NCBI GenBank assembly: GCA_045654005.1
Contig: JAZOMN010000067.1
Location: 1 to 38,394, forward strand
Direction: 5' to 3'
Length of the DNA: 38,394 bases
Source: Clostridia bacterium
Lineage (GTDB): Bacteria > Bacillota > Clostridia > UMGS1840 > HGM11507
Of this stretch, positions 2,171 through 26,164 are shown in pieces. The first letter of the stretch is position 1; the number at the start of each line of letters is the position of its first letter. The notes below the pieces were generated by a model that saw only the letters and a program-made list of their open reading frames with translations, was not told the origin of the DNA and searched no databases. Position numbers and translations under genes: made by a program.

Positions 2171-2372
2171 TCAAGCCGAGCTTGAAATCAGCGATATAAA
2201 TTCCTGACGGAATTTGCGATATGTACTTCGTACGCGATATATCTTTGATGCGATATGTTGCCTTGCGGTAACGAGAAAGGAATTTATATTATATCGCAAC
2301 GGAGTAAAACAGAGTTATATCGCATTTGAGTATGATGAAAATATATCGCACGAGCGTGAGCGAGTATATCAC
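2171..2372. repeat. array of GCGATAT heptamers (4 forward, 4 reverse) interleaved with short unique palindromes
   Basis: Forward GCGATAT at 2191, 2216, 2234 and 2250. Reverse ATATCGC at 2291, 2317 and 2343, and ATATCAC at 2366. Forward spacers are palindromes: aaattcc-tgac-ggaattt, gtac-ttc-gtac, atc-ttt-gat, gttgcc-ttgc-ggtaac. The array is preceded by tcaagc-cga-gcttga. Confidence 0.9.
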
Positions 2373-2451
2373 TAAAATTAGCACCATCTGAATTGTTTAT
2401 TGGTTTTATAATAAAATATAATAAATTAAAAAAGAAAAAGGAGATTTAATT

Positions 2452-3183
2452 ATGCTTGATTTTACAAAAACCGCAGATGATATAGTAAACGCGGCATCTC
2501 AACTTGCTATACTTCCTATAGGTTCAACTGAACAGCACGGTCCGCATCTTCCGATGTGTACCGATTATACGGTTGCAACCGAAATATCAAAACTAATTGC
2601 CGAAAAAACGGGAGCATATCTTCTTCCTACCTTGCCTATAAGTACCTGCTATGAACATAAAGGGAAAAAAGGCAGCGTGTGGATGAAACCTGATACTTTT
2701 TATAAAGTTATCCAGGATATAGTTCTTTGTTTAAAAGACCAGGGATTTACAAAAGTAGCCGTTGTACTTGGGCATGGGGGGATATTTGTTGCAACACCTG
2801 CTATCAGAGAACTTAATGCAATGTATGACGGGCTTAAAGTTGCCAAAATAGATTTTCTTCAGTTCTTTGGAACTAAGGAAATGCTTGAAGTTTTAGAATG
2901 TTCTGACAATCTTCATGCCTGTGAATATGAAACTTCTTTAATGCTTTATTTAAAAGAAGAATGTGTTAAAAAGGAAAAAATCAAGGATGCAGACTTTATT
3001 CCTCCATATCCGAGAGACTTTTTGAACTATGTTTCGCTTGTTAAATTAAGTGATACGGGCGTTTGGGGTAAACCGTCACTTGGCACTAAAGAAAAAGGGG
3101 AAAAGATTGTTAAAATACTTGTTGAAAAAAGCATAGAGTATATGGACAAAGTATTTAATACTATGGATGATAAAGCGTGGTAA
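2452..3183 (+). CDS. creatininase-family amidohydrolase
   Basis: 243-aa ORF with the creatininase-family signature LPIGSTEQHGPHLP plus downstream GHGG and CEYETS motifs. AAAGGAG RBS at 2437-2443. Confidence 0.85.
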   Translation: MLDFTKTADDIVNAASQLAILPIGSTEQHGPHLPMCTDYTVATEISKLIAEKTGAYLLPTLPISTCYEHKGKKGSVWMKPDTFYKVIQDIVLCLKDQGFTKVAVVLGHGGIFVATPAIRELNAMYDGLKVAKIDFLQFFGTKEMLEVLECSDNLHACEYETSLMLYLKEECVKKEKIKDADFIPPYPRDFLNYVSLVKLSDTGVWGKPSLGTKEKGEKIVKILVEKSIEYMDKVFNTMDDKAW

Positions 3184-17660: not shown

Positions 17661-17687
17661 ATATTTAATATGGAAAGGAATGGTAGA

Positions 17688-18764
17688 ATGAAAGTTTTAT
17701 ATCTTATAAATCACGCCGGAAAAGCGGGAACTGAAAAATATGTATATAATTTAGTTAAAGCATATAAAGATAAAAAATGCGAATGTTATTTTGCTTATAA
17801 TGAAGAAGGGCTTTTGCTTAATCAGATGAAAGAGGAAAATGTTCCTTGCTTTCAGTTTGAAATGAAGCATCCTTTTGATATTTCTGCCGCAAAAAAATTT
17901 GCAGGTTACTTAAAAGAAAATGAGATTGATGTTGTTCACGCTCAATATCCAAGAGAGAATTATATCGCTCTTTTATCAAAACTTTTTTATAAAAAAACTA
18001 AAGTTGTTTTCACATCTCATCTTACTATAAAAACTAACCTTTTATGGAAGATAACAAATAAATTTATGACTCCTTTTAACCATAAGATAATTTCAGTATG
18101 CAATCACGGAAAAGAACTTCTTATAGGAAACGGCGTTAAGAAAGATAAAATTGAAGTTATTTTTAATGCAATGACTATTGATAAAGAAGAAACAAATTCT
18201 ACAATAAGAGAAGAACTTTCACTTAAAGATGAATTTTTAATAGTAACTTTGGCAAGATACCATTTTGCAAAAGGTCTTCCATTCTTGGTTGATTCTGTGA
18301 AAAAACTAAAAGAGATTGCAACCCGTCCGTTTAAAGTTTTAATAGTGGGCGATGGGGAACTGTGGGACGAAATAACCGCAAAAATTAAAAATGAGGGGCT
18401 TTCGGATACTATTTTGCAGTTAGGTTTCAGAAAAGATACTGATAATATTTTATCAGGATGCGACCTTTTTGTTAACTCTGCAAGTTGTTTAGAAGCATTG
18501 TCTTTTGCTATGCTTGAAGCATTATCCAAAAAACTTCCTTTGGTTGCTACAAATGTGGGCGGAAATTCAGATATAGTAAACCCTGATACCGACTGCGGAA
18601 TAATTGTTGATTATCCTGATTGTGATGAGATGGCAAACGCAATAAATACTTTAATGAACGATAAAGAAATGTATGAAAGAATGTCACAAAATGCAATAAA
18701 AGCGATAGAGGGAAGATTTAACTACGACAAGATGCTGGACAAAACGTTTGATATGTATATTTGA
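17688..18764 (+). CDS. GT4-family glycosyltransferase
   Basis: The ORF track starts at 17670, but the ATG at 17688 (MKVLYLINHAGKAGTEKY) fits the usual GT4 N-terminus. C-terminal EALSFAMLEALSKKLPLVATNVGGNSDIV motif. Confidence 0.85.
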   Translation: MKVLYLINHAGKAGTEKYVYNLVKAYKDKKCECYFAYNEEGLLLNQMKEENVPCFQFEMKHPFDISAAKKFAGYLKENEIDVVHAQYPRENYIALLSKLFYKKTKVVFTSHLTIKTNLLWKITNKFMTPFNHKIISVCNHGKELLIGNGVKKDKIEVIFNAMTIDKEETNSTIREELSLKDEFLIVTLARYHFAKGLPFLVDSVKKLKEIATRPFKVLIVGDGELWDEITAKIKNEGLSDTILQLGFRKDTDNILSGCDLFVNSASCLEALSFAMLEALSKKLPLVATNVGGNSDIVNPDTDCGIIVDYPDCDEMANAINTLMNDKEMYERMSQNAIKAIEGRFNYDKMLDKTFDMYI

Positions 18765-18891
18765 CCTTAAGGTCAAATGTGATATGTTGTCATACGACAA
18801 CTCGATATATTTACGGCGTAAATTCGATATGTTTTCGGGCAATTCGTGAACTGCCCCTATAAAACGCGATATGTTTGTTCTTTGAACAAAC
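18748..18891 (+). repeat. second YGATAT heptamer array with perfect palindromic spacers (3' end and 3' UTR of the GT4 gene)
   Basis: TTGATAT 18748, GTGATAT 18779, TCGATAT 18802, TCGATAT 18824, GCGATAT 18866. Palindromes: atttgacc-ttaa-ggtcaaat, gttgtc-atac-gacaac, atttac-ggc-gtaaat, gtttt..gggca..tgccc..aaaac, gtttgttc-ttt-gaacaaac. Confidence 0.9.
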
Positions 18892-18898
18892 GTTAAGG

Positions 18899-18933
18899 AC
18901 GCAAAAGATACCATTCGGTCTTTTGCGTTTTTG
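18899..18933 (+). terminator. terminator of the GT4 gene transcript
   Basis: 10-bp stem acgcaaaaga (18899-18908) / tcttttgcgt (18919-18928) followed by a T-run. Confidence 0.7.
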
Positions 18934-25853: not shown

Positions 25854-25930
25854 CGAGGCGTAGCTCAGTTTGGTAGAGTGCTTGGTTTGGGACCAAGATG
25901 CCGCAGGTTCAAGTCCTGTCGCCTCGACCA
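25854..25930 (+). tRNA. tRNA-Pro (anticodon UGG)
   Basis: Hand-folded cloverleaf. Acceptor cgaggcg/cgcctcg, anticodon stem cttgg/ccaag with loop ttTGGga, T-loop ttcaagt, encoded CCA. Confidence 0.9.
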
Positions 25931-25949
25931 TCTTTTTTAAAAAAAGGTG

Positions 25950-25978
25950 TTGACAAATCGGTGATAATATTTTATAAT
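25950..25978 (+). promoter_or_regulatory. perfect-consensus sigma-A promoter for tRNA-Thr/Tyr
   Basis: TTGACA (25950-25955), 17 nt, TATAAT (25973-25978). Begins 20 nt after tRNA-Pro. Confidence 0.75.
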
Positions 25979-26003
25979 TAGAATGTTGTTACCAAAATAT
26001 TTT

Positions 26004-26079
26004 GCTGGTGTAGCTCAATTGGTAGAGCAGCTGATTTGTAATCAGCAGGTCGCGGGTTCGAGTCCCATCACCAGCTCCA
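26004..26079 (+). tRNA. tRNA-Thr (anticodon UGU)
   Basis: Hand-folded cloverleaf. Acceptor gctggtg/caccagc, anticodon stem gctga/tcagc with loop ttTGTaa, T-loop ttcgagt (one C-A mismatch in the T stem), encoded CCA. Confidence 0.9.
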
Positions 26080-26164
26080 GGGAGAGTTCCCGAGTGGCCA
26101 AAGGGGGCAGACTGTAAATCTGTTGGCTCCGCCTTCGGTGGTTCGAATCCACCCTCTCCCACCA
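26080..26164 (+). tRNA. tRNA-Tyr (anticodon GUA), class II long variable arm
   Basis: Acceptor gggagag/ctctccc, anticodon loop ctGTAaa, long variable arm (ggctccgccttcggtgg region), T-loop ttcgaat, encoded CCA. Starts immediately after the CCA of tRNA-Thr. Confidence 0.9.

Follow-up and report, generated by a model that had tools for sequence, protein, structure and literature searches.

A predicted divergent member of the Gut-1 RNA family upstream of a creatininase-family gene in a Clostridia bacterium

Gut-1 (Rfam RF01706) was described as a covariation-supported RNA represented by 43 sequences, from the human gut only, that was not considered cis-regulatory and was given no function (Weinberg et al. 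2010, Genome Biol 11:R31, PMC2864571). A search on Gut-1/RF01706 found no work beyond that report in the literature library consulted. In the Gut-1 consensus, a short motif alternates with hairpins: CAaUGAAAU-hairpin-GUGAAAU-hairpin-GUGAAAU-hairpin-GUGAAAU. We analyzed a 38,394-nucleotide (nt) stretch of DNA from a Clostridia bacterium (contig JAZOMN010000067.1 of GenBank assembly GCA_045654005.1), referred to here as the window, in which an array of GCGATAT heptamers and hairpins precedes a creatininase-family gene. Judged from its sequence and its relatives, this array is a divergent, solo copy of a Gut-1-family structured RNA. As a category it is not new; new here are the heptamer dialect and the extended architecture of a known orphan RNA family.

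Anatomy of the array and its relation to Gut-1

The eight heptamers listed in the first-pass annotation of this DNA were all read at their positions on the + strand. Four GCGATAT copies, F1 (2191-2197), F2 (2216-2222), F3 (2234-2240) and F4 (2250-2256), are followed by four inverted ATATCRC copies, of which R1 (2291-2297), R2 (2317-2323) and R3 (2343-2349) are ATATCGC and R4 (2366-2372) is ATATCAC. The forward-half spacers were also as annotated. Hairpins hp1 (2198-2215, aaattcc-tgac-ggaattt), hp2 (2223-2233, gtac-ttc-gtac) and hp3 (2241-2249, atc-ttt-gat) lie between F1 and F4, and the segment 2257-2277 consists of the fourth, sequence-conserved hairpin hp4 (gttgcc-ttgc-ggtaac) and a conserved linker, GAGAA. 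The upstream hairpin, P0 (2166-2190, arms 2166-2176 and 2180-2190), has a fully (100%) complementary 11-bp stem with a 3-nt loop and abuts F1. A centre segment, AGGAATTTATAT(T) at 2278-2290, is the complement of 2194-2205, which comprises the last 4 nt of F1 and the 5' arm of hp1. The reverse half (2291-2372) contains hpR1 (2298-2316), hpR2 (2324-2342) and hpR3 (2350-2365). These 3' spacers had been regarded as only weakly palindromic, an impression caused by tandem G.A/A.G pairs inside hpR2 and hpR3; they are real hairpins. For example, hpR3 (acgagc-GTGA-gcgagt) forms the pairs C-G, G.A, A.G, G-C and C-G under a GNRA loop. The hpR1 of the window is degenerate.

Simulated and shuffled sequences agreed with the annotated non-randomness of the array. 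Exact heptamer matches numbered 11 in the 38-kb window, seven of them inside 160 nt, against 3.3 expected window-wide, and 11 matches were reached by none of 100 shuffles. The combination of a heptamer, an abutting Watson-Crick hairpin and a second heptamer occurred five times (three at 2191-2250 and two at 18779-18824), whereas the mean over 200 runs of a first-order Markov simulation was 0.005 and no run exceeded 1.

Three other identities were considered and rejected. Clustered regularly interspaced short palindromic repeats have direct repeats of about 23-50 nt and non-palindromic spacers of similar length, whereas the repeats here are 7 nt long, half of them are inverted and the spacers are 9-19-nt hairpins. 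A simple tandem repeat was ruled out by the anatomy. An open reading frame (ORF) at 2214-2375 (53 aa, TTG start) was rejected as coding, since homologous spacers differ in length by non-multiples of three and vary as compensatory pairs.

The Rfam scan that the first-pass annotation had proposed gave a divided outcome. At gathering thresholds, only three tRNAs and no Gut-1 were found in the whole window. In E-value mode, however, Gut-1 aligned end to end with 2189-2261 (+), covering model positions 1-77 of 77 with 29.2 bits (E ~6e-4), and the window copy fails the gathering cut-off of 50 bits. This alignment matches hp1-hp3 to the three hairpins of the model and each of the four GCGAUAU copies to one of its (G)UGAAAU positions, all in the orientation of the model, which corresponds to 2191-2256. 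The grammar is the same and the heptamer dialect is another one, GCGAUAU in the window and GUGAWAU in the model; the C at heptamer position 2 is the main reason why Rfam misses the copy. The first-pass annotation had not recognized the array as any described repeat or riboswitch class; Gut-1 covers the whole forward half.

The same comparison was extended to the flanks of a Gut-1 seed sequence, BAAZ01000095. Past the 77 modeled nt, this sequence continues with a centre complementing the first hairpin arm and then with four hairpin-separated AUAUCAC copies; it also has a UGAC loop and the hp4 sequence. The mirrored half was therefore already present in published data, though not modeled.

To define the relatives of the array, genomes were scanned for three GCGATAT copies spaced 8-22 nt apart, which yielded at least 119 loci (designated by L and a number). 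In the pattern scans, which also covered viral and metagenome sequences, most non-Clostridia genome matches, most viral matches and several metagenome matches were unrelated tandem repeats with periods such as 7, 12, 20 and 21 nt. Among the matches listed, the related loci came mostly from gut and rumen metagenome-assembled genomes of Ruminococcaceae, Oscillospiraceae and Acutalibacteraceae with 35-61% GC, and many showed the ++++---- order with the asymmetric spacing of the window. Twenty-eight elements were oriented and split into units by parsing. Their common layout is P0, F1 hp1 F2 hp2 F3 hp3 F4 hp4, a linker CGAGA.., the centre, and R1 hpR1 R2 hpR2 R3 hpR3 R4, an anatomy common to about 35-45 elements found in Oscillospirales genomes, metagenomes and phage contigs. 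Across the 35-61% GC genomes the heptamers are kept while the surrounding sequence drifts, and almost every spacer sequence is unique. The heptamers are spaced 14-28 nt apart without helical phasing, and all eight within one element share one dialect.

A leave-one-out hidden Markov model built from 11 other elements gave the window copy 132.8 bits (E=1.8e-40) on the + strand and 19.5 bits on the - strand. A covariance model of window-type elements, R1 (13 seed rows, one of which, L091b, is itself a Gut-1 locus above the cut-off), gave 165 bits (+) and 61 bits (-) for the window copy. R1 found 35 elements above 80 bits, always with one strand far better than the other.

Loci above the Gut-1 cut-off were L254 (75 bits), L337 (73), L296 (64), L327 (62 and 59), L365 (61) and L273 (59), and all of them, L365 included, were also full-length R1 matches, with 103 bits for L296, 84.5 for L337, 73.7 for L327, 61.4 for L273 and 58.3 for L254. 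The mirrored 3' half, the centre complement and the tandem-G.A hairpins are likewise present in the bona fide Gut-1 loci L296, L337, L254 and L273, and L296 is a window-type element with GUGAUAU forward heptamers. Because loci that pass the Gut-1 cut-off are also found by the window-type model, the window element is assigned to Gut-1 as a divergent member. The two share the grammar, the polarity, the G-Y-G-A-W-A-U copies, the fourth hairpin (UUGCC..GGCA) and an origin in gut Clostridia. They differ in that the window has GCGAUAU instead of GUGAAAU/GUGAUAU, and the Rfam model is the 77-nt 5' half only. The ladder of 4+4 heptamers, the centre helix, the position of P0 at stop codons, the link to PF05635 genes and the phage copies described below are absent from the published description.

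Both dialects occur together in L091, where two full elements, 2374-2553 (+) and 2714-2888 (-), are convergent and about 160 nt apart, one with GCGATAT/ATATCGC and the other with GTGATAT/ATATCAC heptamers. A terminator-like, bidirectional hairpin shared by both lies between them, and only the GTG copy exceeds the Rfam cut-off (57.2 bits).

Covariation, strand and predicted fold

The spacers pair end to end at 77-97% of positions, compared with 25-30% when shuffled. In an R1-based alignment of 35 elements, 93.5% of the hairpin cells were paired, and both sides change in 34 of 56 pairs. The covariation score of the hairpins was 0.311, a value reached by none of 500 shuffles (0.109), and slid controls scored at most 0.061. 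The hairpins covary, and between genomes the spacers differ while the heptamers stay.

The strand was called from the tandem-G.A asymmetry and the model scores. Tandem G.A/A.G pairs were found in 28 of 70 reverse-half hairpins and in none of 59 forward-half hairpins, and no reverse-strand equivalents occurred. They are flanked by covarying Watson-Crick pairs, often under GNRA or GAA loops. Of 24 elements, 18 follow a co-directional gene whose end lies 0-30 nt from F1, and the orientation relative to PF05635 genes is fixed. Hairpin covariation, the one-strand tandem G.A pairs and the strand scores agree in indicating RNA on the + strand of the window, as the first reading had proposed; the element is accordingly predicted to be a structured RNA with + strand polarity.

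Long-range pairing of forward with reverse heptamers had also been suggested, and it is predicted in both folds that we computed. RNAalifold analysis of 13 elements paired F1:R4, F2:R3, F3:R2 and F4:R1, nested around the local hairpins. In the consensus fold, three four-way junctions stack into a rod, each of them flanked on either side by one variable hairpin, and this ladder brings both ends of the ~185-nt insert together at P0. Folding the window copy as a single sequence likewise joined forward to reverse heptamers (z = -3.9). In the 35 elements the heptamer helices are 96-97% paired but almost invariant. The forward and reverse counts are equal, usually 4+4 and in L004 and L084 3+3. The dialects are concordant as well, with GCG/CGC in more than 20 elements, GUG/CAC in 10 metagenome loci and L091b, and a GUG/CGC wobble in L296. 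At heptamer position 2 we counted eight U.G, four U.A and three C.A pairs, which are too few changes to judge independent compensation.

A second helix competes with this ladder. In the window, 2194-2205 (the 3' part of F1 and the 5' arm of hp1) pairs at 12 of 12 positions with the centre at 2278-2289. Among the 35 elements this alternative helix reaches 94.2% pairing, and both partners have changed in 7 of its 11 pairs. It scored 0.275, with shuffles at 0.119 and slid controls no higher than 0.152. L063 shows a G-C compensation in it that is not shared by the ladder partner. Because it uses the 5' arm of hp1 and part of F1, the alternative helix excludes hp1 and the full F1:R4 pairing. From these data the RNA is predicted to have two conserved alternative states, or a pseudoknot with F4:R1. 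Reading the element by eye for anti-Shine-Dalgarno pairing or an internal promoter gave nothing convincing.

The creatininase locus

The array lies between two divergent genes, one for a CitMHS transporter on the - strand and one of the creatininase family (PF02633) at 2452-3183 on the + strand. A promoter scan recovered the annotated TTGTAA-17-TATAAT site upstream of the array (2138-2166, +), a sigma-70-type sequence with a 10/12 match and the best promoter-like site in the region. In the sister copies L383, L031, L004 and L040, an equivalent -10 box stands directly before P0. Inspection by eye showed another candidate, TTGTTT-18-TATAAT, 3' of the element (2393-2422, +). It is below the scan threshold and may be the native creatininase promoter; its distance to the ATG is like that of a TTGAAT-17-TATAAT site common to L120 and L125, which lies ~40 nt before the ATG. 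The scan detected no terminator between the array and the creatininase gene.

We compared orthologous creatininase loci, one source of which is named as a Ruminococcaceae bacterium. The element is absent from L120, L125, L127, L128 and L121-L124 (five contexts with readable upstream sequence), where the encoded creatininases of L120, L125, L127 and L128 are 86%, 78%, 87% and 85% identical to that of the window. L120 and L125 have the CitMHS/creatininase synteny of the window, and L121, L122, L123 and L124 have another upstream gene. The syntenic intergenic regions measure 240 and 281 nt versus 431 nt in the window. The intergenic sequences of the window and L120/L125 were too divergent for an alignment to locate insertion ends, and no target-site duplication could be called. 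The element-lacking intergenic region of L120 contains, at 2860-2876, tatatattATATCACc, which resembles the centre/R junction or R4 of the window and is either a relic or a chance match.

The genes downstream of related elements are mutually unrelated (a lipoprotein, Bcp, a sigma factor and membrane proteins), and some related elements run into a terminator or into another element in tandem. The first-pass annotation had seen the array as the probable leader of the creatininase-family gene. This is retained for its position and not for the partner: the orthologues lack the element and its relatives stand beside unrelated genes, so that it is not a conserved creatininase regulator. On this comparative evidence, the element would not be a dedicated regulator of the creatininase gene. 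A metabolite riboswitch was rejected for the same two reasons, and the array should not be annotated as a creatininase riboswitch.

The position between divergent genes and the presence of heptamers in both orientations would fit a duplex DNA with multiple operators, in which a factor bound to the eight heptamers controls the CitMHS and creatininase genes. The orthologous intergenic regions of the same two genes are without heptamers, however, and the same element follows the stops of unrelated genes and occurs inside phage late operons. The 14-28-nt spacing shows no helical phasing, and binding to a duplex would call for neither hairpin covariation nor strand asymmetry. The strong asymmetry in particular (165 versus 61 bits, with tandem G.A pairs on one strand) contradicts the operator reading that had been offered earlier. 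We regard it as largely refuted and very improbable.

PF05635 genes, other settings and possible roles

PF05635 is the family of Avd proteins of diversity-generating retroelements and of ORFs in 23S rRNA intervening sequences. A literature search on its function found nothing useful. In L011, L031, L040, L057 and L062, R4 is followed within ~12 nt by the start of a 113-119-aa gene of this family (23S_rRNA_IVP, 'four helix bundle protein'; E=7.7e-22), and remnants were found in L067 and L082. The subfamily has more than 7,900 homologues, the top 120 of which are all at least 78% identical. We located four PF05635 proteins on contigs in five genomic contexts and scanned the 14 loci with R1. A full element (83-161 bits) ended 12-14 nt before the PF05635 ATG in all 14. 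The contexts were a phosphodiesterase-like gene upstream with an AAA_14 gene downstream, RlmD upstream with ASCH downstream, a divergent DivIVA-like gene upstream with a Mur ligase downstream, and a methyltransferase upstream with DUF7225 downstream, the last in two variants. Thus, the element has a strict 5' position relative to one PF05635 subfamily. Among GUG-dialect elements, that of L273 precedes a PF05635 gene of 56% identity and that of L307 a fragment of 40% identity. Some gene callers stretch the PF05635 ORF into the element, so that the annotated products are 150-167 aa long.

In L383, the closest sister of the window copy, a promoter of the same type (TGnTATAAT) abuts a P0 resembling that of the window, and the hairpins of the reverse half are nearly identical. 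R4 reads ATATCGC there and leads into ggaaagaggttcctATG of the PF05635 gene. No PF05635 gene was found in the window, which suggests that the window copy is a solo copy of a module composed of a promoter or upstream gene end, the RNA and a PF05635 gene. In 23S rRNA intervening sequences with PF05635, a four-helix-bundle ORF likewise lies in or next to a self-complementary RNA and occurs sporadically, and some Gut-1 copies follow tRNA or 5S genes. The present element differs from them in lying outside rRNA with both complementary halves upstream of the ORF, and excision by RNase III is known only for the intervening sequences.

This association bears on a protein platform or sponge. Single-stranded GYGAUAU would bind an RNA-binding protein, for which the best candidate is a PF05635 oligomer; AUAUCRC would mask the sites, PF05635 would be autoregulated, and solo and forward-only copies would act as decoys. 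The constancy of the heptamer across 35-61% GC while its surroundings drift argues for a trans factor. Forward-only arrays exist, the element is always upstream of this PF05635 subfamily, and the heptamer dialect shifts together with the divergent PF05635 in L273. The only solved homologue (2rld) has five chains, as expected for Avd-like oligomers. However, four sites do not obviously match a pentamer, about 80% of the elements, that of the window among them, lack a PF05635 neighbor, and the hairpins of the reverse half show conserved tandem G.A pairs of their own, which a mere masking strand would not need. CsrB/RsmZ sponge small RNAs and the TRAP-binding trp leader also display a short motif many times over, on variable hairpins or between them. 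The likeness is one of architecture only, as the 7-nt motif here is in linkers rather than loops and has an equal number of complementary copies in cis. We consider a platform possible, though not probable.

Most other full elements have a co-directional gene upstream, with P0 overlapping or abutting its stop codon. These genes are varied (RlmD, PrmA, aldo-keto reductases, LepA and thioredoxin). Comparison of three orthologous RlmD loci showed different P0 stem sequences with the pairing to the coding 5' arm kept. In L011, L057, L067 and L375-L382, the P0 5' arm is made up of the final 12-18 coding nt of RlmD, and at some RlmD loci the stop codon TAA is made by F1 and hp1 (GCGATATAA).

Phage contig L215 carries three near-identical copies (5008, 7057 and 10041), located 27-29 nt after the terminase, portal and capsid stops, and phage contig L144 carries one (4352) after an unannotated ORF and before the capsid gene; distances to the stop in the two contigs are 22-29 nt overall. 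Gut-1 elements also lie directly 3' of tRNA genes in L337 (48-934, also with 5S rRNA), L327 (3783-4725), L273 (425-697) and L296 (1404-1693), and these appear to mark the 3' ends of stable-RNA operons.

Arrays with a forward half only were found as well. Four half-arrays lie within 8 kb of housekeeping genes in L043 (1732-1789, 4534-4594, 6666-6733 and 7891-7960), and their hairpin units are partly common to the copies. L384 (2122-2316) and L385 (867-1054) have four copies of a third dialect, TCGATAT, after a PF05635-DUF7225 gene pair; they keep the centre complement (gagatttat) and end in an intrinsic terminator. The window itself contains a second, degenerate Gut-1-like array of this forward-only type at 18759-18891 (+), with a fold z-score of -5.7. 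Its P0' (18759-18778, +) holds in the 5' arm the TGA stop (18762-18764) of a GT4 glycosyltransferase ORF (17670-18764). The heptamers are GTGATAT (18779), TCGATAT (18802 and 18824) and GCGATAT (18866), and hp4' (18873-18891) is followed by an intrinsic-terminator-like hairpin at ~18897-18933, all on the + strand. The second array gave no match to Rfam Gut-1 at E<=1.

A GTAG-headed repetitive extragenic palindromic (REP)-type repeat (for example tGTAGGGGCGAcc...ggTCGCCCc) recurs beside Gut-1 arrays in L043, L017, L065, L215 and L015. In L065 and the first L215 copy, it sits in the element centre or replaces the reverse half. Two further RNA features are unrelated to the arrays: a ZMP/ZTP riboswitch in L007 (2376-2458, 61 bits) and a three-tRNA cluster in the window (25854-26161, +).

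The distribution of the copies could also reflect a mobile or recombinogenic DNA, similar to miniature inverted-repeat transposable elements or attC sites. The inverted 4+4 heptamers would then be transposase or recombinase sites, the hairpins would form in single-stranded DNA, and PF05635 would sometimes be carried along. Presence and absence at syntenic creatininase loci (431 nt versus 240-281 nt of intergenic sequence), the many unrelated contexts, the tandem copies, the occurrence of several copies per genome (L043, L055 and L117), the three near-identical copies in L215 and the unit of PF05635 and element in five contexts all fit such spread. Integron attC sites also have complementary 7-nt cores flanking variable palindromes kept only in structure, are strand-specific and follow stop codons directly. 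They differ in having two boxes rather than four core pairs and another core; the present element has no cassette array and no integrase, and its G.A pairs and GNRA loops point to RNA. Between genomes, moreover, only the heptamers and the pairing are kept, with compensatory changes, which indicates selection on a folded single strand. The tandem G.A pairs are strand-specific, the orientation to flanking genes is fixed, and forward-only arrays lack a second end. No target-site duplication, transposase, recombinase or cargo between the halves was seen. We judge mobility improbable as the explanation of the element; it would account for spread and not for function, and is compatible with an RNA.

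We think it somewhat probable that the element is a cis-acting, self-closing intergenic or leader domain, which gates or stabilizes a neighboring ORF through a fold switch. It would insulate, stabilize or gate the adjacent ORF, canonically the PF05635 gene, with expression controlled as the RNA switches from the closed ladder to the alternative helix or back. The zipper would be formed by the invariant heptamers, which a trans factor would probably recognize as well. In the window, the element's own promoter (2138-2166) would read into the creatininase gene and merely add a promoter and a structured 5' extension to its transcript. Structured modules after stops or between operon genes are known from REP sequences and bacterial interspersed mosaic elements (BIME), pneumococcal BOX, Neisseria Correia and the T7 intergenic RNase III sites. 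These also occur sporadically, several per genome and in phage late operons, and could stabilize or process mRNA. Those families are conserved in sequence within a genome, whereas here only the heptamers and the pairing are kept and the hairpin of each unit is different.

Several observations weigh against the cis-acting domain as we have described it. In the promoter-bearing copies the -10 box abuts P0, and much of the P0 5' arm may be untranscribed. The forward-reverse pairing rests on complementarity, equal counts and dialect concordance of nearly invariant heptamers. Lone deviant heptamers are often uncompensated, as in the window, where R4 (ATATCAC) opposes F1 (GCGATAT) with a C.A mismatch. 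G.U pairs are not in excess over A.C in forward-half and forward-only hairpins (7 versus 9), a count that is uninformative on strand. Only about one fifth of the elements have a PF05635 gene next. Forward-only arrays are common (L043, L047 and the second window array), indicating that cis pairing is not the whole story, and the L043 arrays stand in ATATCGC sense just upstream of pyrF, rph and yhbY, opposite to most arrays.

A wider proposal, which we hold tentatively and think rather unlikely, is that the Gut-1-type ladder RNA and an Avd-like PF05635 protein form an unrecognized portable RNA-protein module. The protein would read GYGAUAU, the dialect would co-evolve with it, and the complementary half and the centre switch would gate protein synthesis or spread. 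Solo and forward-only copies, both of which occur in the window, would be relics or act as decoys, and in host and phage mRNAs they would in addition shape the 3' and 5' ends.

Since 2010, Gut-1 has remained an orphan without a function or a cultivated host, and its model spans half of the molecule. The comparisons made here indicate that the Gut-1 motif makes up the 5' half of a longer, self-complementary RNA of ~185 nt, for which two competing folds are predicted, and that it exists in several heptamer dialects, most copies of which are missed by the Rfam model. The element is found at stop codons and between phage late genes, and it constantly accompanies the genes of an abundant PF05635 subfamily on their 5' side. 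Two orphans, an RNA and a protein family, thereby gain a concrete, testable link.

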